Source of the DNA: Minisyncoccota bacterium
Lineage (GTDB): Bacteria; Patescibacteriota; Minisyncoccia; Phycocordibacterales; SBAW01
Direction: 5' to 3'
Assembly: GCA_035546615.1 (NCBI GenBank)
Contig: DASZWM010000002.1
Span: forward strand, 61,661 to 125,660
Length of the DNA: 64,000 bases
Under the pieces are notes generated by a model, which had not been told where the DNA came from, did not search any database, and saw only the letters and a list, made by a program, of their open reading frames with translations. Made by a program: the position numbers and the translations under genes. Of this stretch, positions 9,231 to 62,227 are shown piece by piece; positions within the stretch are counted from its first letter, which is position 1; each line of letters opens with the position of its first letter.

Positions 9231-9303
9231 TGCCCGATCGTCTAATGGTAGGACAGAGGCCTTTGAAGCCTTTAATTGGGGTTCGAATCCCTGTCGGGCA
9301 GCA
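9231..9303 (+). tRNA. tRNA-Gln (anticodon UUG)
   Basis: Cloverleaf by hand: U1:A72 acceptor, anticodon loop cuUUGaa, T-loop UUCGAAU; CCA not encoded. Confidence 0.75.
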
Positions 9304-9525: not shown

Positions 9526-11199
9526 ATGCCGTATTCGACTGATATGTCAGTGTATTTAGATTTGGGCGGCGCTTTAGCTGCTTTTGGCCTTTTATTTACT
9601 GTTTACCAACTTCGGCGACCAAGGTGGGAGGTAATTTTGCGAATTAGAAATAATTGGCAAAGTGATATTTTCTGGATATTAGGTTTTATAGGTTTGTTTT
9701 ATGCCCTAGTTGGCGTGCTTGTATCTGAACTCCCAATTAATTCTTTCAACTTTCCGTTTAATACCCCATTACTTTACGAGGTGGCAGCGTACCTATCGTT
9801 TGTAGCTTCACCTCTGTCATTAATATATTTTGCGACCAATGACAAAAAGTTATTTAACGCAAAAACTGCAGAAACTTTCTACGAAGTAATCTTGCAAGAA
9901 ATTTCTAAATCTAGTGATGTAAACCTAGATGCGGCATTGGAAATAGTCTTGAGAAACTTTAATGAAATTTGTGATGCAACTCTTCAAAATACAGATAAAG
10001 ATTTGCGCTCATACGCAAGGTCAATTTTAGACGTTGTACTAAGTGACGAGTCTGTAGTAAAAGTGCTCACTACCAAGAGGCTTGATGCTTTGCAATATAT
10101 CTTTTATTTAATAAAGGAAAAGAATATCACTCGTGCTCATTCGGGGATAGGTATACCGAGAATTGTAAATAATCTTTTCTTTGACGAAAATTCCTTCCTC
10201 TATAAACAACTCGATAGAAAAGGGTTGGCACTTTCATCAAATATATACACGAGCATTTTTGAATCTCCAGTTATACTCACCAACTTTGATCTGTTTGGGT
10301 ACCCGACTATCGGTTATGGAATGAGTAGAGATACTGGCAATGCTGGTATAAGAGTATTTATCAAAGCCTTATCTCTAAGCATTGAAACTTACTTTAAAAC
10401 AGGGAGCGTGCCTCCGAGGCACATTAATAATGGGTTGTCTTACTTAAGCAATATATTTGGAGGGTTGTGTGCAAAAATTGCCATCAAAGAAAATAAAGGT
10501 GTTGATACTAAATCTAGTTTAGAAGATGAGTGGTGGGGCTTACATCAAATAGCCTCCTTTTTAGGACATGATTATATTTTTCTTGCCTATGAAGAAAAAC
10601 TAAATCAGCAAGTTCTGGAAAACGAAAAAACTGCCCATGAGGCTCGATTTGGCTCAAATGCAACTATAAATGAGGGTATTGCAGCTGTTATCTATAAAGC
10701 TTTTGAGCAGCTTTCACAAATTAAAAAAACCACAGACATATATCATACAGTTCTGGAGCTCTTGCATGGAATGATGAATGAGCCTACCTACAAGGAAGGT
10801 TATAGACCGCCTTTTGAAAAGAGACTCTGGCAACAAATCGGTGCAAATGTTGCTAAACGTTATTATCCTGCCGTCGTTAGAACGTATTTAACCTTTGTTG
10901 GGTTCTGTCTTGGCGCAGATGCAAACCAACGACAAGGTTGGATTGGCGAACAAGCGGAACGTATGAGACGACTTTTGTATATTGACCTTAAGCCTTTATT
11001 TGATAAGAATGAAAAAATGATAAATAAGGAATTTATGAAAGACGTTTTGCTCCCAGATTCCATGTCCTATAAAGATGGTAAATTTACTTATACCTCTGGA
11101 TTCGGAGAAGGTACAACCACTGAAGTAGCACCACCCCCTGAGGGTGCGACATCAGGTTTGGAAGGAATAGATTTAGAGAGTATGCCTCACTTCGTCTAG
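9526..11199 (+). CDS. hypothetical membrane protein (3 N-terminal TM helices + ~450-aa soluble domain); AT-rich
   Basis: 557 aa ORF, GC far below flanks, no motif recognised. Confidence 0.6.
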   Translation: MPYSTDMSVYLDLGGALAAFGLLFTVYQLRRPRWEVILRIRNNWQSDIFWILGFIGLFYALVGVLVSELPINSFNFPFNTPLLYEVAAYLSFVASPLSLIYFATNDKKLFNAKTAETFYEVILQEISKSSDVNLDAALEIVLRNFNEICDATLQNTDKDLRSYARSILDVVLSDESVVKVLTTKRLDALQYIFYLIKEKNITRAHSGIGIPRIVNNLFFDENSFLYKQLDRKGLALSSNIYTSIFESPVILTNFDLFGYPTIGYGMSRDTGNAGIRVFIKALSLSIETYFKTGSVPPRHINNGLSYLSNIFGGLCAKIAIKENKGVDTKSSLEDEWWGLHQIASFLGHDYIFLAYEEKLNQQVLENEKTAHEARFGSNATINEGIAAVIYKAFEQLSQIKKTTDIYHTVLELLHGMMNEPTYKEGYRPPFEKRLWQQIGANVAKRYYPAVVRTYLTFVGFCLGADANQRQGWIGEQAERMRRLLYIDLKPLFDKNEKMINKEFMKDVLLPDSMSYKDGKFTYTSGFGEGTTTEVAPPPEGATSGLEGIDLESMPHFV

Positions 11200-11201
11200 A
11201 T

Positions 11202-11759
11202 ATGAATCCAAACATTTGGTTTTACACTTTTAGTACAGCAGCCCAAGTAATGGCGGCTTTGGCCGGTTTATTTGCAGTATTTGTTGTATATAAGATTCAA
11301 GATTTTAGTCAGCTTATAAAAGACGCCCGCTCTAGTCTGTCCCGGTTGATTCCATACAATTCAGCGAATACGGGCGGAGATACAATCTCTAAGCAGGAAG
11401 TATTAGATATGACTGATAGAGAATTGGTTACTACGCTTGCCGAGTTGTTAGTACTTGAGACATCTCAGAATGGAGCGTTCTTTAGCGGACATTCAGAAAC
11501 TATAGATGGCACAACGATAGCTGTAAACTCGAATACCTACGACTATTTCGCAGCCCTTGTTGATAAAAAGGAAAGAATACTAAAACGTCTGATTTTTGTC
11601 TTGGGTTTAAGTTTAGGAACTATTTGTGTTTGTCTAGTATCATTGGTGCTAATTGACGTGTTATCAAAGTTTGAGTGGTTTATTTGGATGTGTTTGGCTT
11701 TATTTATATACACCCTTTGGACAATCGGAATGGATATTTACAAGATAACCCTAGAGTAA
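11202..11759 (+). CDS. hypothetical membrane protein (1 N-terminal + 2 C-terminal TM helices)
   Basis: 185 aa; 2-bp gap after the upstream gene; AT-rich. Confidence 0.55.
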   Translation: MNPNIWFYTFSTAAQVMAALAGLFAVFVVYKIQDFSQLIKDARSSLSRLIPYNSANTGGDTISKQEVLDMTDRELVTTLAELLVLETSQNGAFFSGHSETIDGTTIAVNSNTYDYFAALVDKKERILKRLIFVLGLSLGTICVCLVSLVLIDVLSKFEWFIWMCLALFIYTLWTIGMDIYKITLE

Positions 11760-11768
11760 TCTTTCTCT

Positions 11769-12092
11769 ATGAAAGGAATAATTATCGAAAATAGTCTCAA
11801 AGACAAAAGTATTATCACCGAAGCTGAAATTATTCGAACTTGGGAAGATGGAAGTTGGAAGTTGCGGGAGGTAAAAGTTTCAACAGAATGGGCTGAAAAA
11901 TTTGGAGGATACTTAAATGATGGACCCTGGTATGTTCACTTTTGGGAATCCGACAGCGACGATGTACTAGTAGTATTTAAAGACAAAAGCTTCTGGATCA
12001 AACATTCGGACAAGAATACTTGGCAAGATGCTATTGCTCATGGAAAGTCGTTACATATACCCGTGGAGCAATTAGACTTTCCTATTGATTGA
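11769..12092 (+). CDS. hypothetical small acidic cytoplasmic protein
   Basis: 107 aa; 9-bp gap after the upstream gene; AT-rich. Confidence 0.5.
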   Translation: MKGIIIENSLKDKSIITEAEIIRTWEDGSWKLREVKVSTEWAEKFGGYLNDGPWYVHFWESDSDDVLVVFKDKSFWIKHSDKNTWQDAIAHGKSLHIPVEQLDFPID

Positions 12093-12130
12093 GATTTCGA
12101 TTTCTCCCTTTTATATTATATAATCAAGAT

Positions 12131-12514
12131 ATGAAGTATTTGCTAATCACGGCTTTATTTTTGGTTGTCTTTGTGTTTGCTACTCCAGCAAAGGCCGCAC
12201 CATTAACCCAATCCCAAGTAAATGCAATAATTACTATTATGCAGTCTTTCGGTGTAGATAGTGCTACGATTTTAAATATCAAAACAACACTCTCTAATTC
12301 GACTTCCGCTAAGGTAGAATCCGTCGTCAAAACTACTTTTAAAGGAGTTCCTACCTACGCACAAGTGAAAAGAGAGTTAGCAAAATCACGCAATAAGGAG
12401 GTGACTTATATGGAGAATGGATGTGTATACTCAATAAACCATTTAGTGAGTGAACATATTTTCAAAACACGCGATATGAGTATTCGCGATCTTGCATCTG
12501 GAGCAAGTTGTTAG
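12131..12514 (+). CDS. hypothetical secreted protein (signal peptide MKYLLITALFLVVFVFATPAKA)
   Basis: Track ORF starts at TTG 12089 overlapping the previous stop; ATG 12131 gives a classical signal peptide; AT-rich. Confidence 0.5.
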   Translation: MKYLLITALFLVVFVFATPAKAAPLTQSQVNAIITIMQSFGVDSATILNIKTTLSNSTSAKVESVVKTTFKGVPTYAQVKRELAKSRNKEVTYMENGCVYSINHLVSEHIFKTRDMSIRDLASGASC

Positions 12515-12557
12515 TGCTCCTTGGTGTATAAAGTTTAAAAATATAGTTAATCTTCTC

Positions 12558-13040
12558 TTACCCCCGTCGCGCCGCATCAATAGCGGCAACGTCGAGCTTT
12601 TTCATCGTCATCATCGCGTCAAACGCGCGTTTTGCCTCATCGCCGCCCTTGGCAAGTGCTTCGGTCAGCGTGCGCGGCGTTATTTGCCACGATACTCCCC
12701 AGCGGTCCTTGCACCAGCCGCACTCGCTCTCCTGGCCGCCGTTTCCGACGATGGCATTCCAGTAGCGGTCCGTCTCTTCCTGATCGTCCGTCGCTATCTG
12801 GAAGGAAAACGCCTCGCTTTGCTTGAAATACGAGCCGCCGTTAATGCCCATGCAAGGAATCCCGCAGACCGTGAACTCTACCGAGAGCACGTCGCCTTTC
12901 TTGCCCGACGGGAAATCGGCAGGCGCATGGAAGACGCCCGTTACCTTGCTGTCGGGGAACGTAGCGGCATAGAAATTCGCCGCCCCTTCCGCATCCTTAT
13001 CAAACCAGAGGCAAATAGTGTTTTTTGGTATCATATACAT
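12558..13040 (-). CDS. VOC family protein (PhnB-like / 3-demethylubiquinone-9 3-methyltransferase-domain protein)
   Basis: 160 aa; CLWFDKDAEGAANFY...CGWCKDRWGVSWQI matches the PhnB-like family. Confidence 0.75.
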   Translation of the reverse strand: MYMIPKNTICLWFDKDAEGAANFYAATFPDSKVTGVFHAPADFPSGKKGDVLSVEFTVCGIPCMGINGGSYFKQSEAFSFQIATDDQEETDRYWNAIVGNGGQESECGWCKDRWGVSWQITPRTLTEALAKGGDEAKRAFDAMMTMKKLDVAAIDAARRG

Positions 13041-13140
13041 ATATTTTATAGCACCTCAGGATAATCTACAAAATAAGCGGAGGCTCCGGAAAAGGCCCGA
13101 CATCGTCCCAGAGGATCCATCCTTTGCTATACTGGCCACT

Positions 13141-23776: not shown

Positions 23777-24112
23777 TCGGGTAGTACCAAGTAAGTTTTA
23801 CATATGGGAAAAGGGAACAACGCGTATCGCAAGGACAAGAAGAAGCCGAAAAAGGGCGGCAAATAATACGCCCGTCTTAACCGAGCCTACATGCATGCTC
23901 GCGTATGCTTGGAGCGAGGTCGAGATTATTGGTCGTAAGAGCAGGAATTCGTATGGCAAACAATGATAGGAGTTCCAGCACGAGCAGCCGCAGCTCTTCA
24001 TCGGGCAGCAACTCGCATCAAGGGGGCAGTTCGCGCGGGGGGCGCTCAAGCGGCAGCGATAGCGACAGATAGCGTACACTAGCGCACAGGGATGCTGGAC
24101 ATCCGCTGTGCG

Positions 24113-24145: not shown

Positions 24146-24195
24146 AGGGCCCCTATCAAAAGTAAAAGGGCGGCGCGCAAGCGCCGCCCCCAACG

Positions 24196-25020
24196 CTACC
24201 TGACCACGGCCCTCTTCTGCCGTATGTTGGCCTCCATGTTCGCTATTTCCGCGTCGAATGCCGGATCGTTCGACCGGCGCAGCTTCACCACGTTCACGCT
24301 ATGGAGAATGGTCTTTGAATCCCGGTCCCCGAAGTAGGAGGACATCTTCGCATAGATCATGCCGGTCATGGACCTCACCAAAAAAATCGCGACGTGACGC
24401 GCGAGCCGGTATCTGCCGACCTTGATATCGGATTCAAGATCGGAAACCGTTACGTCATAGTGCAGGGCAACAGTTTCCTTTATCAGCGTGATGAGGTCTT
24501 CCTCGTCCTCCGTGTTTTTCTGGCTCTCGAGTACCGCCTCAATCCCGTCGAAGCTCTCGAGAACGACAGGCGCTGCTGAGAGCGGCTGTGCAGCCGGCTT
24601 TTCAGAAGATGCGTCTTCAGGAGTATCCTCCCGGGGCGGCGGCTTAGCCTTCGCCTCGGTCTTGGGGTTTTTTGTCGCAGCGGCCTTTTTGGCGGCTTCT
24701 TGCGCAGCCGTGGCCGCTTGATAGATGCGGCCCTTTTGCGTCGCGATGCTGCGCACCGCAACCAGCACCTCCGTCACGCCGTTGCGCTCTGCCTGCCAGG
24801 CGGCAAGCAGGCGCGCGCGATAGATGTCGAGTATCTGTCTGCGCAGGCCCGCTACGGGGACGCTGACACTGACGGTTGCCTGCGTTATTCCTTCAAGTTC
24901 CATTCGCCGGAAGAAGGCACTGAAGGCATCCTCGCCCAGATCCTTTTTCAGGCGTTCCTGCACGCGCGACCACTGCTTTGCCGCGTTCGTGCCTTCCCCC
25001 ACGGGGGTTTGAGCATCCAT
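24196..25020 (-). CDS. DnaA-like protein with DnaA N-terminal (domain I-like) and C-terminal DNA-binding domain IV but no AAA+ ATPase domain
   Basis: C-term ...VSDLESDIKVGRYRLARHVAIFLVRSMTGMIYAKMSSYFGDRDSKTILHSVNVV... matches the DnaA domain IV signature; N-term resembles DnaA_N; Ala/Lys/Pro/Glu-rich linker; start taken at Met24 of the track ORF. Confidence 0.65.
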   Translation of the reverse strand: MDAQTPVGEGTNAAKQWSRVQERLKKDLGEDAFSAFFRRMELEGITQATVSVSVPVAGLRRQILDIYRARLLAAWQAERNGVTEVLVAVRSIATQKGRIYQAATAAQEAAKKAAATKNPKTEAKAKPPPREDTPEDASSEKPAAQPLSAAPVVLESFDGIEAVLESQKNTEDEEDLITLIKETVALHYDVTVSDLESDIKVGRYRLARHVAIFLVRSMTGMIYAKMSSYFGDRDSKTILHSVNVVKLRRSNDPAFDAEIANMEANIRQKRAVVR

Positions 25021-25124
25021 CCCTATACTCCTTTTGCCTCTTAGGCGCCCCAAGGCGCGAAAACAAAATCCAAATACACTTAAACACATCCTCCTGGATT
25101 TTCAAGTGAATGGGGCAGGGCAGA

Positions 25125-25153
25125 TTGACAATATCCGTTCTATTATATATAAT
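25125..25153 (+). promoter_or_regulatory. perfect sigma-70 consensus promoter TTGACA-N17-TATAAT upstream of the DEAD-box helicase
   Basis: ttgaca at 25125-25130, tataat at 25148-25153, 17-bp spacer; helicase ATG at 25183. Confidence 0.5.
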
Positions 25154-25182
25154 CATAAGCGACTGAATCTCTTTTAGTCGTT

Positions 25183-26421
25183 ATGTATCAAGGCAATTCT
25201 TCATCTCGCCGCCCTACTAACCGCTCCGGCGGCCGGCCTCAATTCGGTACCAGGAAGCCCTTTCACAGCGGCGGCCCTTCTAGGCGCTTTGCCCGCCCGG
25301 CTCCGCGCACGAACCATATCGACGTATCGCGCTATATCAACAAGGCGGTCATTACCGAGGAAGTGGAGCGCTTCGTGCCCGAGCACAAGTTCGCCGATTT
25401 CGCGCTTGATGAGCGCCTCAAGGCAAATATCGTAAAGAAAGGCTATGTCGAGCCGACGCCAATACAGGACCGCTCTATTCCGCACATCCTGCGCGGGGAA
25501 GACGTCGTCGGCATCGCCAATACCGGAACGGGCAAGACCGCGGCATTTCTCATACCGCTCATCCATAAAGCTATTACTCAACGCAGTGAGCGCGTGCTTG
25601 TTATGGTGCCCACGCGCGAGCTCGCCCAGCAGATAGCAGCGGAGCTCAAGGAGTTCACGCCGGGACTCCAGATATTCTCGGCAGTAGGCGTAGGCGGCGC
25701 GGGCATCGGCCCGCAGATGGCGGATCTCCGTAAGAAGCCGCAATTCGTTATCGGCACGCCGGGGCGCCTCAAGGACCTGCTCGAGCGCAAAGCGCTTATC
25801 CTCTCCAACTTCCAGACGGCGGTCCTCGACGAAGCCGACCGCATGCTCGACATGGGCTTTATCGCCGATATGCGCCGCATCCTTTCGCTTTTGCCTTCCC
25901 CGCGCCATACCCTTTTCTTTTCCGCGACGCTTTCCCCGGAAATAGAGAAGCTCATCGGCGAGTTCCTCCGCACGCCGGTGCGCGTCTCGGTTAAGACCCG
26001 CGACACCTCCTCGACCATCGACCAGGATGTCGTGCGCGTGGCACCCGGCACCAACAAGCTCGACGTCCTCCACGACATGCTCGTAAAGCCTGAGTTCAAC
26101 AAGGTGCTTATCTTCGGCCGCACCAAGCACGGCGTCGAGCGCCTCTCTAAAACGCTTGTGGAGCGCGGCTTCCGCGCGGAGTCCATTCACGGCAACAAGA
26201 CGCAGGGCAAGCGCCAGAAAGCGCTCGAGCTCTTCAAGCGCGACCATGTGCAGGTGCTCGTTGCGACCGACGTCGCCGCGCGCGGCCTGGACATCAACGG
26301 CGTCTCGCACGTCATCAACTATGACCTTCCTGCGTCGCATGAGGATTACATCCACCGCATCGGCCGCACCGGCCGGGCAGGGAAGAAGGGTCAGGCGCTT
26401 ACCTTTATCGACGGCAAGTAG
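25183..26421 (+). CDS. DEAD-box ATP-dependent RNA helicase (RhlE-like) with Arg/Gly-rich N-terminal tail
   Basis: 412 aa; Q-motif, GTGKT, DEAD, SAT, HRIGRTGR motifs. Confidence 0.9.
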   Translation: MYQGNSSSRRPTNRSGGRPQFGTRKPFHSGGPSRRFARPAPRTNHIDVSRYINKAVITEEVERFVPEHKFADFALDERLKANIVKKGYVEPTPIQDRSIPHILRGEDVVGIANTGTGKTAAFLIPLIHKAITQRSERVLVMVPTRELAQQIAAELKEFTPGLQIFSAVGVGGAGIGPQMADLRKKPQFVIGTPGRLKDLLERKALILSNFQTAVLDEADRMLDMGFIADMRRILSLLPSPRHTLFFSATLSPEIEKLIGEFLRTPVRVSVKTRDTSSTIDQDVVRVAPGTNKLDVLHDMLVKPEFNKVLIFGRTKHGVERLSKTLVERGFRAESIHGNKTQGKRQKALELFKRDHVQVLVATDVAARGLDINGVSHVINYDLPASHEDYIHRIGRTGRAGKKGQALTFIDGK

Positions 26422-42466: not shown

Positions 42467-42797
42467 CAAACTCGCGAAAAAGAAGTGCGTGCCCTGCGAG
42501 GGGGGAGTAAAGCCCCTCACCGAAGAGGCTGCGCAGGACCTTATGAAGGAGCTCGACCCGGAATGGGCGCTCATAGATGAAGCCCACATACTGGCCCGGG
42601 GCTTTCACTTCAAGGATTTCAAAAAGACGATGGTATTCGTCAATAAGGTTGCCGCCATTGCCGAGGAAGAGCAGCACCACCCGGACCTGACCATTTCCTA
42701 CGGCGATGTGGGGGTGGAACTGACCACCCACGCTATCCACGGCCTGTCCGAGAACGACTTTATTTTGGCCGCGAAGATTGATATGCTGGGGGCATGA
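42459..42797 (+). CDS. 4a-hydroxytetrahydrobiopterin dehydratase (pterin-4a-carbinolamine dehydratase)
   Basis: Internal ATG (MASKLAKKKCVPCEG...); EEEQHHPD motif. Confidence 0.8.
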   Translation: MASKLAKKKCVPCEGGVKPLTEEAAQDLMKELDPEWALIDEAHILARGFHFKDFKKTMVFVNKVAAIAEEEQHHPDLTISYGDVGVELTTHAIHGLSENDFILAAKIDMLGA

Positions 42798-45013
42798 AGC
42801 ATTTTAATCTTGGGCTGGCCGCTTTCGCTTTACTTATTATTCCGGGCGTCGTTTCCGCAACGGGGTACTCCTCTGACAGGACCCCTCCAGTTATTTCTTC
42901 GCACTCCAACGTTACCGTAACCGCAACGACGAATGCGGGCGCCAAGGTCACGTATACGCTTCCGACCGCAAAAGACGCGAAGGACGGCACCGTTTCCGTC
43001 TCCTGTACTCCTTCATCTGGCAGCCAGTTTCCCATAGGGAACACCACGGTCACCTGCAGCGCCAAGGACAGATCCGGCAACGAGGCGCGAAGCTCTTTTA
43101 AAGTGACGGTCAATCCGTTGCCTCCGGACAGGACGCCCCCGACGATAGCGTCGCATCCTAAGATAGTCGTAGACGCCACTTCAAGCGCCGGCGCGTTCAT
43201 CGATTACGCGCTTCCGACCGCCAACGACGCGCGCGACGGCGTCGTACCCGTATCTTGCTCGCCTCTTTCCGGCACGACGTTTTCGATAGGCGTCACGACG
43301 GTCCGCTGCTCCGCGCACGACGCCGCGGGCAATACCTCCTCAAGCTCCTTCACCGTTACGGTCAAGCCGGTGCCCCCTCCTCCGCCCGACAGGACGGCGC
43401 CGAAGCCTCTCTCTATCCATATCCAGAGCAATAACACCAATCCGTCGCAGGCCAAGGCGGGCGACACGGTGACGATAAGCTTTACCGCCAGCGAAAAGGT
43501 CAACCCCGTTGTCCTTGTGGAGAGCCGCGTGCTCTTCGCGAAGTCGGTCAACACCGGCGGCAATTCCTGGGACGCTTCCTATGTCGTGACTTCCAAGGAC
43601 AGGACCGGCAACAAAGTAGACTATCTTCTTACGCTCAGGGATACGGCGGGCAATATATATGCCTGCTCCTCCGCCCGCCTGCCGCTTGTCGGCTACTGCC
43701 CGACGACCGACGGCTCTTCGGTCACTATTTACAAGCAGACGACGCCTCCGGCCGACACGACCGCGCCGGTCATCGCCGCGCACGCGGACGTTACGGTTAC
43801 CGCCACCGACTCGTCGGGCGCAACGGTAACCTATTCGCTTCCGACCGCCAACGACGCCAAGGACGGCGCGGTGCCGGTTTTGTGCGCTCCTGCATCCGGA
43901 ACCCTGTTCGCGATAGGGAATACCACGGTCACCTGCACCGCGGCGGACATCGCCGGCAATGCCGCCTCGACGACCTTCAGCGTGATAGTCAACCCCCTTC
44001 CTCCGGACACGACGCCGCCCGTTATCAACTCATCCACTAATATCGCAGTTGATGCCGATGACGAGAACGGCGCTTCGGTTGCATACGTCGTCCCGAACGC
44101 GACCGACGCCCGCGACGGCGCGGTAGCCGTATCCTGCACGCCCCCTACAGGCAGTGTATTCGCGATAGGCACCACGCCGGTTAACTGCTCCGCTACCGAC
44201 GCCGCCGGAAACACCTCGTCGAGCTCGTTCACTGTTACCGTCAATCCGCTTCCGGATAGAATGGCGCCGACTCTGGAGTCGCATGATGACATAACCGTCG
44301 AGACTTCCGACGGCGCCGGGGCTTCCGTTACCTACACCGCACCCTCCGCGACAGACAATATCGACCCGAATCCGACGGTTGAATGCGCCCCGGCTTCTGG
44401 TACCCTATTCGAACTCGGCGATACCGAGGTAGAGTGCGTCGCCGAAGACGCGACCGGCAATACCTCCTCCACCACGTCCTTCAAGGTAACAGTTGTCTTC
44501 GTTCCGCAGCCGTATACCATGGCCTCGCAGGAGGACGAGTCCAATTTCTGCAATCCGGATTGGCGCGAGTGCTATACCGGAGGAACTCCGGAGAGCGTAA
44601 TTAACTTGGGACAGGGGTCCAACTTTGGCAACGGCTCTCTCTTGAGCCTTACCATCGCTCGTGACGATAGCTATGGGCCGGTTTTGGAGGATTATCCATG
44701 GACGATAGAGATCCGTTGTTACACTAATTCGGCGTACACTTCTGCTTGTCCTGACTGGACAGCGCCTAACGCATGGAATGGAGACCGAGCCTACTTCGTG
44801 AGAGAAGCGGCGACCTCCACACAGGACCTCAAATACTGGACGGCATACTTTACCGACCCGAGTCACGAGACTAACTTTGATGGTTCCGCGCCAGTCGTAT
44901 TTAATCCCGCATATTACTACCGTCTCTCGATCAACGATAATAATATAATTATTGGTGCCTACGGTTCTGCTACCGAACCCTATTGGGTAATGACAGGAAT
45001 GACACGACCGTAG
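42794..45013 (+). CDS. large secreted cell-surface protein with about five HYR (hyalin repeat)/Ig-like domains
   Basis: 739 aa; signal peptide; repeated about 80-aa units ...TPPVISSHSNVTVTAT...AKDGTVSVSCTP..G..F.IGNTTVTCSA.D..GN...F.VTVNP. Confidence 0.8.
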   Translation: MKHFNLGLAAFALLIIPGVVSATGYSSDRTPPVISSHSNVTVTATTNAGAKVTYTLPTAKDAKDGTVSVSCTPSSGSQFPIGNTTVTCSAKDRSGNEARSSFKVTVNPLPPDRTPPTIASHPKIVVDATSSAGAFIDYALPTANDARDGVVPVSCSPLSGTTFSIGVTTVRCSAHDAAGNTSSSSFTVTVKPVPPPPPDRTAPKPLSIHIQSNNTNPSQAKAGDTVTISFTASEKVNPVVLVESRVLFAKSVNTGGNSWDASYVVTSKDRTGNKVDYLLTLRDTAGNIYACSSARLPLVGYCPTTDGSSVTIYKQTTPPADTTAPVIAAHADVTVTATDSSGATVTYSLPTANDAKDGAVPVLCAPASGTLFAIGNTTVTCTAADIAGNAASTTFSVIVNPLPPDTTPPVINSSTNIAVDADDENGASVAYVVPNATDARDGAVAVSCTPPTGSVFAIGTTPVNCSATDAAGNTSSSSFTVTVNPLPDRMAPTLESHDDITVETSDGAGASVTYTAPSATDNIDPNPTVECAPASGTLFELGDTEVECVAEDATGNTSSTTSFKVTVVFVPQPYTMASQEDESNFCNPDWRECYTGGTPESVINLGQGSNFGNGSLLSLTIARDDSYGPVLEDYPWTIEIRCYTNSAYTSACPDWTAPNAWNGDRAYFVREAATSTQDLKYWTAYFTDPSHETNFDGSAPVVFNPAYYYRLSINDNNIIIGAYGSATEPYWVMTGMTRP
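42890..44480 (+). repeat. tandem about 250-bp intragenic repeats encoding HYR domains
   Basis: Repeat units begin near 42890, 43130, 43750, 43995 and 44240; an unrelated domain is inserted 43385-43740. Confidence 0.6.
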
Positions 45014-45025
45014 GTATAACTGTGC

Positions 45026-45484
45026 ATGCAACATAAAGTCCTACGCGGCTTCACATTGATAGAGCTTCTGGTCGTTATAGCTATAATAGGGATACTTTCT
45101 AGTATTGTATTAGCGGCACTCGGGAAGGCTAGGGACGGCGCACGCGATGCGCGACGTGTCAGCGAGCTGCGAAGCATAGTACAAACTCTATTCCAATTGG
45201 ATATAAACAATCCAAATCAATCGCTCGATTGTGATGGCAGCGGTTTTACAACTGGTTGTAATTACATCAGCCAGTATAAAGATCCTACCGGTACGCTGTC
45301 GTGCGTTGTATTCCCTCCTAGTTCTGCCCGTGTGTGTCAATACACTATTACAAGCCCTTCCGGAGGCACTATCACCAGTTCTAACTTCAAGGTATGTACC
45401 TATTTAGAGGTAGGTTCAGGGGGTTTGCCGAAAGGAAATATAAATATAAATAGCAGTACTTACACCCTTACCGCCGGCTGCTAG
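45026..45484 (+). CDS. type IV pilin / pseudopilin (prepilin-type N-terminal cleavage/methylation domain)
   Basis: 152 aa; GFTLIELLVVIAIIGILSSIVLAAL. Confidence 0.8.
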   Translation: MQHKVLRGFTLIELLVVIAIIGILSSIVLAALGKARDGARDARRVSELRSIVQTLFQLDINNPNQSLDCDGSGFTTGCNYISQYKDPTGTLSCVVFPPSSARVCQYTITSPSGGTITSSNFKVCTYLEVGSGGLPKGNININSSTYTLTAGC

Positions 45485-45492
45485 AATGGTAG

Positions 45493-45563
45493 TGGACCTG
45501 GCGAGAATCGGACTCGCGACTCGGCAATGCGAATGCCGCGTAATACCACTTTACTACAGGCCC
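45493..45563 (-). tRNA. tRNA-Ala (anticodon CGC), T-loop UCCGAUU
   Basis: Hand-folded cloverleaf GGGCCUG/CAGGUCC acceptor with G3:U70 Ala identity pair, anticodon loop UUCGCAU; C instead of U at position 55. Confidence 0.7.
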
Positions 45564-45655
45564 GCTGAGATTTTCTTAGCGTTCTGCGCCTTAGAAAATC
45601 CAAGTGCACTTGGTGCTACCAAGGTGCCTTTTATCAAAATGCGTGCAACCCAGTG

Positions 45656-45720
45656 TCGGGATGCCGAGAATCGGACTCGGGAGTCGGTTCTACGCACCGA
45701 CTCAATTCAAGAAATGCGCA
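45656..45720 (-). pseudogene. tRNA 3' fragment: anticodon stem with a 20-nt loop, T-arm (UCCGAUU) and acceptor 3' strand CAUCCCG+A
   Basis: Shares anticodon-stem and T-arm sequence with the tRNA-Pro 70 bp away; no adjacent 5' half. Confidence 0.4.
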
Positions 45721-45745
45721 CCCTTCTCAATTTTCAGAGGCTCTG

Positions 45746-45816
45746 TCGGAGTGCCGAGAATCGGACTCGGGTCTTACGCACCCGAAGCGCATGTAATACC
45801 ACTATACCACACTCCG
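45746..45816 (-). tRNA. tRNA-Pro (anticodon CGG), T-loop UCCGAUU, with a 16-bp extended acceptor helix (45739..45824)
   Basis: C1:G72 and A73 (Pro identity), anticodon loop UUCGGGU with G37; leader GGCUCUGU pairs with trailer ACAGAGCC. Confidence 0.7.
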
Positions 45817-45824
45817 ACAGAGCC

Positions 45825-45861
45825 TCCGATGGCCTACGTAATACCATTATACCACATCCCG
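45825..45861 (-). pseudogene. tRNA 5' fragment (acceptor CGGGAUG + D-arm GUAU-AAUGGUA-UUAC)
   Basis: Acceptor 5' strand is the exact complement of the 3' strand of the fragment at 45656..45720. Confidence 0.35.
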
Positions 45862-46018
45862 ACACTGGATTTCACAGGACTTTTTTGTGGTCACAAATCG
45901 AATTTTCTCGACAGAAAATTCGTTCGCGACCCCAGCTCGCGGTTTTGCAAGTGCAAAACATCGCTACGCTTTGCCCCCAGGCGTCCACTCTGCCGCAGGG
46001 CAAAGTGGACGTCCTGTG

Positions 46019-46092
46019 TGCACCCTGAGAGGCTCGAACTCCCGACCTCGCCCGTGTGAAGGGCGCGCTCTAGCCAACTGAGCTAAGGGTGC
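46019..46092 (-). tRNA. tRNA-Val (anticodon CAC)
   Basis: Canonical cloverleaf GCACCCU...UUCGAGC...AGGGUGC-A, anticodon loop UUCACAC. Confidence 0.8.
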
Positions 46093-46191
46093 GGTAGGAA
46101 CATCATAGCGGAAAAAGCGTATGCAGACTAGCGCGGAATTTTTTGGGACATAGACGGAAAGGAGAAAAAATGTTTGAATGGGGCATACAGC

Positions 46192-46264
46192 GGGCCCTTA
46201 GCTCATCTGGTAGAGCGCCTCATTTGCAATGAGGAGGTGACCGGTTCGATCCCGGTAGGGTCCA
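46192..46264 (+). tRNA. tRNA-Ala (anticodon UGC)
   Basis: GGGCCCUUAGCUCAUCUGGUAGAGC..UUUGCAA..UUCGAUC..AGGGUCC-A; G3:U70. Confidence 0.85.
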
Positions 46265-46279
46265 CAAAAGACAGAAATA

Positions 46280-61459: not shown

Positions 61460-62227
61460 TCATGTCGTCTCGTAGCGGCGGAACTGGTTATGCGCGGCGA
61501 AGAGATATTTTTGCGCCGCGTAGACGTCAAGGTCGTCGTGCAGGTCGCGCAGCCGGCCTTCGGCGTCGATGCTGAAGGCGCCGAATTGACGCACAAGTGG
61601 ACGCAATTGCTCGAGGTTGTTCGCCGCAAGTCCGCCCGCGATGCCAAAGCCGACATGTTCGATCTTCTCAAGTTCTGCAAAGCACCGCTTTGCGAACTCG
61701 TAATCGAATCTCTTGCCCTTGCCGGCACTGCCGTCGATGAGCACGTAATCGATGCTGTCGCCGTAGCTGCGTACGCGCTGGGCGATCTTCTTCGCGGAGC
61801 CTTCGCAGGCCTCGATGGCCGTCGGTCCGCACTGAAGTACGATAGTCTTGCGCGTGAAGAAGGATGTCTTCTTGTAGCTTTCCAATATCTTCTTTTCCGG
61901 CCACGGCACGTTTATCTGGAAGCCATGGCAGTGTGGTCCGGCTTCGTCCTGGGCGCGAAACATGTCGCCTACCAGCTTTTCCTGTTCATCTGTTGCGAAG
62001 TGCAGCAGATTGAGCACATTGTGACGATCGAAGAAGATGTCGCTGATGCGGTCCGATTTCGGATACCGGCGCGGATATTTATTGGGCATGCCGCGCAGCG
62101 TCTTGCCGCTGACCAGCACGCCCACCATCACAAGCTGTTGGGCGCCCAGCGGAAGTGCCGCGAGCACCGGATGTATTTCTTCCCGGTTCATAAAACCGGT
62201 CACTCCAATGTACGATGCGGGGCGCAT
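61460..62227 (-). CDS. TIM-barrel protein of the phosphoribosylanthranilate isomerase (TrpF)-like family
   Basis: DGSAGKGKRFDYE and GFGIAGGLAANNL resemble TrpF signature segments; start taken at the internal Met. Confidence 0.45.
   Translation of the reverse strand: MRPASYIGVTGFMNREEIHPVLAALPLGAQQLVMVGVLVSGKTLRGMPNKYPRRYPKSDRISDIFFDRHNVLNLLHFATDEQEKLVGDMFRAQDEAGPHCHGFQINVPWPEKKILESYKKTSFFTRKTIVLQCGPTAIEACEGSAKKIAQRVRSYGDSIDYVLIDGSAGKGKRFDYEFAKRCFAELEKIEHVGFGIAGGLAANNLEQLRPLVRQFGAFSIDAEGRLRDLHDDLDVYAAQKYLFAAHNQFRRYETT

Follow-up and report, generated by a model that had tools for sequence, protein, structure and literature searches.

Truncated relatives of the bacterial replication initiator DnaA are already known as regulators. 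Hda (or HdaA), the factor of DnaA's regulatory inactivation (RIDA), is a DnaA-derived paralogue with a regulatory role, and HdaB (CCNA_01111 in Caulobacter, with homologues in other alphaproteobacteria) is a DnaA-derived, ATPase-less protein that keeps domain IV, binds HdaA and blocks RIDA in Caulobacter (PMC7049699). With the AAA+ module alone retained in the former and domain IV alone in the latter, a protein combining domains I and IV without the motor would represent a third design. Here we describe such a protein, P0001 (274 residues), encoded within a 64-kb stretch of DNA from a Minisyncoccota bacterium (64,000 nucleotides, positions 61,661 to 125,660 of contig DASZWM010000002.1; hereafter the window). 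As a truncated relative of DnaA, P0001 joins a group that is known already; what is new is the domain I and IV layout, together with changes in the residues that recognise DNA.

P0001 resembles HdaB in its descent from DnaA, in the absence of the ATPase, in the retention of domain IV and in the loss of the canonical residue R399 (PMC7049699), but it carries domain I and a long linker, whereas HdaB is short and consists of domain IV only. HdaB is the closest characterised relative, and the only experimentally characterised regulator precedent that we found to be built on domain IV, although it acts through HdaA, and no Hda was seen in the window. Hda/HdaA, by contrast, is a mirror image of P0001, possessing the AAA+ domain III and an N-terminal clamp-binding motif and lacking domains I and IV. 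When compared with DnaA itself (TIGR00362), P0001 shares domains I and IV, which are homologous by profile and by fold, has a linker in place of domain II and lacks the whole AAA+ domain III, with its Walker A/B and sensor motifs and its arginine finger. A DnaA without domain III is unable to bind ATP, form the helical filament, engage single-stranded DNA or melt the origin. P0001 offers a natural experiment on domains I and IV in the absence of ATP.

P0001 possesses domains I and IV of DnaA and lacks the AAA+ core

The gene and its parts lie on the minus strand of the window as follows.

24196..25020 (-): coding sequence of the 274-residue DnaA-derived protein P0001, with domain I, linker, domain IV and no AAA+ module
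24751..24987 (-): DnaA domain I, residues 12-90; AlphaFold2 predicted local distance difference test score (pLDDT) 93-97
24514..24750 (-): linker, residues 91-169, standing in place of domains II and III
24526..24561 (-): linker motif LESFDGIEAVLE, residues 154-165, identical at 10 of 12 positions (83%) to the orthologue P0002, the linker being otherwise poorly conserved
24211..24513 (-): DnaA domain IV, helix-turn-helix, residues 170-270; pLDDT 92-98
24298..24333 (-): recognition segment FGDRDSKTILHS, residues 230-241, the counterpart of E. coli residues 429-440 (FGGRDHTTVLHA) in the 1j1v_A alignment

A first-pass annotation of this DNA, made from the letters alone, had read the gene as a DnaA-like protein with domains I and IV, an Ala/Lys/Pro/Glu-rich linker and no Walker motifs, and had proposed profile searches as a check. 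All the elements that it listed were confirmed at the coordinates given. The profile searches were run, and both domains score above the curated Pfam cut-offs: DnaA_N (PF11638; KH-like fold) matches residues 15-76 (36.6 bits, E=3.8e-09, cut-off 24.6 bits) and Bac_DnaA_C (PF08299) matches residues 178-243 (48.7 bits, E=7.9e-13, cut-off 31.5 bits). Nothing else in the Pfam scan of P0001 matched, including AAA and Bac_DnaA (PF00308), and a pattern search of the protein found neither Walker A (GxxxxGK[ST]) nor a Walker B-like motif. An AlphaFold2 model built with 33 sequences (mean pLDDT 85) was confident over residues 12-89 and 170-273. In Foldseek searches, domain I of this model matched B. subtilis DnaA domain I (4tps_D/B) with template modelling (TM) scores of 0.86-0.89, as well as 2wp0 and 2e0g, while domain IV matched E. 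coli domain IV on a DnaA box (1j1v_A; TM 0.91, root-mean-square deviation 1.0) and M. tuberculosis domain IV (3pvp; TM 0.91-0.92); its phmmer matches were 2hcb, 1l8q and 1j1v. P0001 is, by profile and by fold, an ATPase-less descendant of DnaA with bona fide domains I and IV. Against the NCBIfam DnaA equivalog TIGR00362 it scores 95.5 bits, below the cut-off of 343.9, and against other DnaA equivalogs 20-40 bits, where the cut-offs are 410-657.

The extent of the loss was measured with a hidden Markov model (HMM) of full-length DnaA (474 positions, from 58 full-length relatives). P0001 aligns to positions 2-120 and 365-473, leaving positions 121-364, the whole AAA+ core, without a counterpart. 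Since only 82 residues separate the two domains of P0001 and the core comprises ~245, the core cannot be housed between them. A tblastn search of the window with three full-length DnaAs returned only the domain I and domain IV segments of P0001, and found no full-length dnaA, no split domain III gene and no Hda homologue. The possibility that dnaA is split, with domain III encoded by a gene of its own close by, was rejected because no domain III match was found anywhere in the window. P0001 is not an initiator, since without ATP binding, an arginine finger and single-stranded-DNA-binding elements it can neither form a DnaA filament nor melt an origin.

The composition of the linker agrees with the first description (residues 91-169 include 18 A, 9 K, 8 E and 8 P). 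In the AlphaFold2 model a predicted helix (92-115) is followed by a disordered A/K/P/E-rich stretch, with pLDDT 47-62 over approximately residues 121-170. In the alignment to the full-length DnaA HMM, positions 365-380 are matched by residues 160-177, of which residues 160-165 (IEAVLE) fall on domain III's last helix, the III-IV connector. From these alignments the motif LESFDGIEAVLE reads as a relic of that connector, and would mark one edge of the ancestral deletion.

Residues that read DNA and bind partners are replaced in P0001

We mapped E. coli residue numbering onto P0001 through the 1J1V alignment, and compared each position with 30 other short proteins and 60 full-length relatives (90 relatives; 92 sequences when P0001 and its orthologue P0002 are included).

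H434: His in 89 of 90 relatives; S in P0001, P in P0002
T435: T, S or A in 90 of 90 relatives; K in P0001, K in P0002
P423: Pro in 75 of 90 relatives; A in P0001, A in P0002
W6 (domain I): Trp in 80 of 90 relatives; W in P0001 (W17), W in P0002
W25 (domain I): W or F in 87 of 90 relatives; F in P0001 (F36), S in P0002
F46 (domain I): Phe in 78 of 90 relatives; G in P0001 (G58), H in P0002

In E. coli the base-specific contacts with the DnaA box are made by R399, P423, D433, H434, T435 and H439 (PMC7561715). P0001 has K, A, D, S, K and H at these positions, and is thus identical at two of the six (D433 and H439). The domain IV structural residues R407, R432, D433, T436 and H439 are kept, as is the W6 equivalent in domain I; R399 has become Lys. 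In addition, E21 of domain I is replaced by A32, the residue equivalent to N44 is Val, and that equivalent to L422 is Tyr in P0001 and Leu in P0002. Among the 92 sequences the combined replacement of H434, T435, P423, W25 and F46 is confined to the clade of P0001 and P0002.

The functions of these residues have been described for several DnaAs. In E. coli, binding to the DnaA box is abolished by T435M and likewise by R399A (PMC5742627), and the DnaA of Thermotoga, in which most of the six box-reading residues are missing, recognises a different 12-bp site (PMC7561715). In domain I, W6 drives dimerisation, E21 and F46 bind DnaB, W25 and F46 belong to the hot spot for DiaA (F46 also being used by DnaB and YfdR), and in other species SirA and HobA bind to this same alpha2/alpha3 surface (PMC5448010). 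Since only two of the six base-contact residues are kept and the near-invariant H434 and T435 are replaced, binding of P0001 to a canonical DnaA box appears doubtful. The proposal of the first-pass annotation that the protein binds DnaA boxes, possibly as an anti-initiator, finds no support as written, with four of the six contact residues changed and W25 and F46 replaced. Nor did the search for DnaA boxes that it had called for lend support: the window shows no enrichment of TTATCCACA-like sites (11 were counted where 6.8 are expected, a number reached by 10 of 100 shuffles), and these sites form no cluster and are absent from the gene's own promoter region. As a lineage with changed near-invariant DNA-reading residues, the P0001 clade may provide a tractable case of an initiator DNA-binding domain re-used with a new specificity.

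The P0001 gene is intact and has a syntenic orthologue

The following signals flank the gene.

25028..25034 (-): Shine-Dalgarno sequence AAAGGAG, 7 nucleotides 5' of the ATG at 25020, read directly in the sequence
24166..24191 (-): intrinsic-terminator-like hairpin of 11 pairs (9 G-C) followed by a T-rich tail, from a terminator scan
25100..25105 (-): TTGAAA block, a possible -35 element upstream of the gene, conserved in both genomes in the alignment

An open reading frame (ORF) finder entry (24196..25089 on the minus strand, 297 residues) begins at an upstream ATG. The ATG at 25020, giving 274 residues, is the better start, because it is preceded by the Shine-Dalgarno sequence, the NCBI and Logan gene calls use it and the orthologue alignment begins at residue 1; the 297-residue reading from 25089 has no Shine-Dalgarno sequence, is used by neither gene callers nor the orthologue, and was rejected. 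The terminator-like hairpin starts directly past the stop codon and is conserved at the orthologous locus. Upstream of the gene a promoter scan gave no sigma-70-type site and no convincing -10 element was found; the TTGAAA block is a possible promoter element at most. Footprinting of this upstream region between the two genomes found only TTGAAA and short GC-rich blocks in common, with no clear operator.

To search for relatives, we scanned 1.84 billion cluster representatives with HMMER. Of 2709 matches at E<=1e-3, only one besides the query lay at E<1e-30. This orthologue, P0002 (287 residues), is 46-49% identical to P0001, has the same two-domain layout and was found on four contigs from at least three samples. 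Its locus (L002) is syntenic with that of P0001, the gene being divergent from the same helicase, with MsrA, Zincin_1, YecM and dnaX nearby. The two proteins are 58% identical in domain I, 49% in domain IV and 39-40% in the linker, compared with 62-91% for the neighbouring proteins of the two genomes. With conservation higher in the two domains than in the linker, and lower in the protein than in its neighbours, the gene is, on this comparison, under selection and yet fast-evolving.

The clade is otherwise very rare. A word-indexed homologue search with P0001 returned only P0001 itself. In 185,579 GTDB species representatives the P0001/P0002 alignment gave 190 pattern matches, none of them a relative, and a degenerate DNA pattern for G[DN]RDxKTILH gave six, about the number that we estimate by chance, none of which encodes a DnaA domain; on the strength of these two scans the clade is absent from the representatives scanned. 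A scan of JGI metagenomes found no clade member and only two full-length DnaAs, judged alphaproteobacterial from sequence, and in IMG/VR and in phage and plasmid collections there was neither a relative of the clade nor any short domain I and IV protein. A PHROG search with P0001 gave no match. A walk from uvrB in two related metagenome-assembled genomes (MAGs) found the gene in neither: in one the locus breaks off within the helicase gene, shortly before the target would be reached, and the other is differently arranged.

Short proteins with domains I and IV form a wider set

We defined a 'mini-DnaA' layout as PF11638 and PF08299 in one polypeptide, less than ~170 residues apart, without PF00308; P0001, with both domains, an 82-residue gap and no PF00308, has this layout. 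The 96 sequences with domains I and IV collected from the representative search and cluster look-ups show a bimodal inter-domain distance: ~35 have 28-158 residues between the domains and the remaining ones 217-336, typical full-length DnaAs lying in the range 261-336. The layout recurs in at least 35 other sequence clusters, which come from Paceibacterota or contigs resembling the Candidate Phyla Radiation (CPR), and from mobile islands of alphaproteobacterial chromosomes, making this a recurring design. These proteins have a Met start, a DnaA-like end and no Walker A, and a profile search added further examples, among them 90% clusters of as many as 21 members. Their two-domain layout is that of P0001, but they are only 21-29% identical to it, have different deletion end-points, and almost all keep the box-reading residues (GGRDHTTVLHA) and the W25/F46 hot spot that P0001 has lost; several lie in mobile islands. 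Our literature searches found no experimental study of any other mini-DnaA and no description of a domain I and IV DnaA-like protein; 'DnaA-like' proteins of Rickettsia plasmids were mentioned only as annotations. In databases the short proteins are named 'helix-turn-helix domain-containing protein' (NCBI) or 'chromosomal replication initiation ATPase DnaA' (IMG), the latter a misleading label for proteins without the ATPase.

The top scores of a profile of the short proteins were full-length DnaAs, where named from Beijerinckiaceae and related Hyphomicrobiales. In a neighbour-joining tree (~170 positions, too weak to decide) the short proteins were dispersed between full-length ones, one clade being made up mostly of short proteins, and P0001 and P0002 fell on a long branch near P0044, a short protein from another Paceibacterota MAG whose contig also carries genes for a DEAD-box helicase and for a protein resembling DNA polymerase III delta'. 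Together with the deletion end-points, which differ between short-protein lineages when aligned to the full-length DnaA HMM, this scattered placement hints at a repeated loss of domain III.

The genomic contexts of the short genes vary. Two distant short proteins on CPR-like contigs (P0035, L008 5727-6467, and P0107, L009 5070-5888) have YceG upstream and an HhH-GPD glycosylase downstream, a neighbourhood that indicates a vertically inherited chromosomal mini-DnaA lineage distinct from that of the window. Other short examples (P0254 and P0316) come from Methylocella-like genomes, and one cluster unites a Methylocella-labelled member with a member on a 5.2-Mb contig (L089). The short gene at L089 10001-10678 lies in an island with transposases, a serine recombinase, DUF2924/DUF3489 and Toprim_3-DUF3631 primase-like genes, and that at L010 8001-8930, from a different cluster, has HTH_3 and Toprim_3 nearby on a large proteobacterial or alphaproteobacterial contig; the content of these islands suggests element-borne mini-DnaAs.

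The Bac_DnaA_C helix-turn-helix has also been re-used outside the initiator by phage and prophage proteins, in which it occurs alone or fused to a non-DnaA N-terminus, whereas P0001 has DnaA domain I. Among 67 IMG/VR viral contigs with a domain IV match (L011-L077), we counted 62 ORFs with domain IV and no domain I, 41 of them shorter than 200 residues, together with four full-length DnaA-like genes; none of the 67 loci carries the short domain I and IV layout. One metagenomic protein from ENA (P0026, 343 residues) has three tandem copies of domain IV (residues 34-122, 138-216 and 242-320) and no domain I or III; its last copy has the motif RDDKTILH, like P0001.

P0001 as a possible DNA-binding regulator

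From the architecture, folds, conservation and substitutions described above, we infer DNA binding, an altered specificity, dimerisation and a set of target genes. The reading that we favour, tentatively and as one that may well be right without being assured, is that P0001 is a re-purposed DNA-binding regulator, with domain IV acting on a non-canonical site and domain I serving in association. With the whole AAA+ domain III removed, a flexible linker of ~80 residues would tether domain I to the helix-turn-helix domain IV. Domain IV would still bind duplex DNA and, with S, K and A in place of H434, T435 and P423, would read a sequence other than the canonical DnaA box. Domain I, with its W6-equivalent Trp, would mediate self-association or association with the cell's DnaA, and would no longer offer the W25/F46 surface to DnaB and other partners. 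The likeliest role would be that of a transcriptional or chromosome-site regulator, for which the candidate targets are its own promoter and that of the divergent DEAD-box helicase, or a replication-related locus. This reading is based on the combination of an N-terminal association domain, a flexible tether and a C-terminal helix-turn-helix, and on changed residues within conserved folds, while the Shine-Dalgarno sequence, the terminator and the syntenic orthologue argue for a functional gene. The chromosomal, non-mobile context, the lack of relatives in phage, plasmid and IMG/VR collections and the lack of a PHROG match are also in its favour. The first-pass suggestion of a replication-initiation or transcription regulator survives in that a regulatory role is likely, but rather than competing for DnaA boxes the protein more probably has a different DNA target.

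Several observations weigh against the proposed regulator. Domain IV is not basic overall (isoelectric point 6.8, with K+R and D+E both 16), so that DNA binding is not guaranteed, and a binding site for P0001 was not identified by a footprinting that rested on two genomes only. The protein evolves fast when set against its neighbours (46-49% identity against 62-91%). Furthermore, dimerisation of domain I is not universal, that of H. pylori showing no self-association (PMC5448010), and HdaB offers the example of a domain IV homologue that acts purely via protein contacts (PMC7049699).

P0001 might instead act as an anti-initiator or dominant-negative DnaA, occupying DnaA boxes at oriC or at DnaA-regulated promoters, or capping oligomers through domain I heterodimerisation, so that the filament is blocked and initiation lowered. 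Its architecture comprises precisely those two modules of DnaA that are required for occupying boxes and for contacting DnaA, and the Trp equivalent to W6 is kept. We nevertheless consider this role unlikely for P0001, given that H434, T435 and P423 are replaced in the clade, that substitution of T435 or R399 abolishes box binding in E. coli (PMC5742627), and that box-like 9-mers are neither enriched nor clustered in the window and do not occur in the gene's own promoter region. As judged from their residues, the mechanism is plausible for most other short proteins, which keep the box-reading positions and W25/F46, and it fits them better than P0001. Action without DNA, as an HdaB-like decoy that modulates DnaA activity by titrating a protein (for example an inactivator of the Hda type) which normally contacts domains I and IV of DnaA, seems improbable. 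P0001 does match PRK06030 (NF004688), a 123-position 'hypothetical protein' model that we take to be the HdaB-type family, but weakly, at 19.5 bits against a cut-off of 136, compared with 95.5 bits for the DnaA model. No Hda homologue was found in the window, and Hda is, to our knowledge, essentially proteobacterial, although an alphaproteobacterial-type GcrA is encoded in the genome. Precedent exists in HdaB, which with domain IV only, and likewise without R399, binds HdaA and blocks RIDA (PMC7049699), and in Hda, whose contacts with DnaA involve domain I as well as domain IV (PMC5448010, PMC5295017); however, the Hda-contact residue L422 is Tyr in P0001, though Leu in P0002, and the N44 equivalent is Val.

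The gene could also be a resident or domesticated mobile-element gene, a mini-DnaA that marked the origin of an element or interfered with host initiation and was carried into a Paceibacterota chromosome. Such an origin would be in keeping with the short genes in alphaproteobacterial islands (L089 and L010), with the frequency of domain IV without domain I on viral contigs and with the alphaproteobacterial identity of the named full-length matches, domain I being up to ~45% identical to DnaA N-termini judged to be of alphaproteobacterial type. We give it a low probability, as the neighbourhood is one of housekeeping genes (MsrA, YecM, DEAD helicase, TGT, UvrABC), syntenic in two genomes and with no integrase or transposase nearby, the clade has no relatives in IMG/VR, phage or plasmid collections, and the short layout was absent from all 67 viral loci. 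Finally, a decaying dnaA pseudogene, or an assembly or frameshift artefact hiding an ordinary dnaA, is effectively refuted. The faster divergence of the gene and the rarity of its clade, for which the 1.84 billion representatives gave just two clusters at E<1e-30, are what decay might produce, but the reading frame is intact, with a Shine-Dalgarno sequence and a terminator, both domains are modelled with pLDDT >90 and are more conserved than the linker, and the linker motif is 83% identical. A frameshifted or assembly-broken dnaA, which the first-pass annotation had named as the finding that would undo it, was rejected: the identical protein is present on a Logan contig that was assembled independently, P0002 shows the same architecture on its four contigs, tblastn found no AAA+ segment, there is no AAA+ remnant in any frame of the window, and the 82-residue gap is too small for the ~245-residue core.

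Genomic neighbourhood of the P0001 gene

NCBI has the identical protein under a Candidatus Paceibacterota MAG. The best matches of the window's UvrB (78-93% identity) are from Paceibacterota, Adlerbacteria, Minisyncoccia and Patescibacteria MAGs, and on this basis the source genome is judged a genuine member of the CPR. Within the window we also identified, at 883-1410 on the minus strand, the GcrA homologue noted at first pass (Pfam GcrA, 114 bits, E=1.1e-32); judged by UvrB, the genome encoding it is Paceibacterota/Adlerbacteria-like. GcrA is familiar chiefly from alphaproteobacteria, where it regulates the cell cycle. Its occurrence together with a gene derived from DnaA, for which the full-length matches that carry a name are alphaproteobacterial, hints that cell-cycle genes were imported. 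A broader conjecture, which we regard as rather unlikely, is that mini-DnaAs form a recurrent class of replication or cell-cycle regulators created by clean excision of the AAA+ module, found in alphaproteobacterial islands and Paceibacterota chromosomes, and that the Paceibacterota version is an alphaproteobacterial import, perhaps together with GcrA, rewired to a new DNA target. The mini-DnaA would then be part of an imported circuit of cell-cycle control in a reduced-genome symbiont. Cell-cycle control in Paceibacterota is essentially unknown; few of their genes can be recognised as candidate regulators of replication or of the cell cycle, and the P0001 gene and the nearby GcrA homologue belong to these.

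The gene divergent from that of P0001 has the following features.

25183-26421 (+): divergent DEAD-box helicase coding sequence (DEAD 162.9 bits, Helicase_C 115.8 bits)
25125..25153 (+): helicase promoter TTGACA-17-TATAAT, identical to the sigma-70 consensus at 12 of 12 positions

The perfect promoter of the divergent helicase had been recognised correctly at first pass, and the divergent arrangement is conserved at L002. A stretch of ~90 nucleotides comprising the helicase promoter, a short 5' untranslated region (with a CGACT...AGTCG hairpin) and the first codons is almost invariant between the two loci (window ~25124-25215, plus strand; L002 ~9810-9900), compared with ~77% identity for coding DNA of the two genomes, which suggests a strong regulatory constraint on this leader.

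Immediately downstream of the DnaA-like gene at both loci, although the subsequent genes differ, lies a 20-codon micro-ORF encoding MGKGNNAYRKDKKKPKKGGK (window 23804-23866, plus strand; L002 ~10926-10988, minus strand), with a protein that is 100% identical and 88% nucleotide identity over 77 nucleotides. An extended -10-like element, TGCTATAAT, is found just 5' of it.

The other neighbours of the P0001 gene are housekeeping genes (MsrA, a Zincin_1 protein, YecM, an M23 peptidase, TGT and uvrABC), with dnaX 17 kb away; no integrase or transposase was seen near the gene. The window contains six tRNA genes and no other Rfam family. A low-GC island (~9526-13064, plus strand; GC 0.38, against ~0.58 elsewhere) adjoins tRNA-Gln (9231-9302) and carries ORFs of 557, 185 and 107 residues without a Pfam match, and was possibly acquired horizontally. 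Four tRNA genes (Ala-CGC, Pro-CGG, Val-CAC and Ala-TGC) are clustered on both strands at 45492-46265, beside a type IV pilin-like ORF (45026-45484) and a gene for a 739-residue protein with five HYR repeats (42794-45013).

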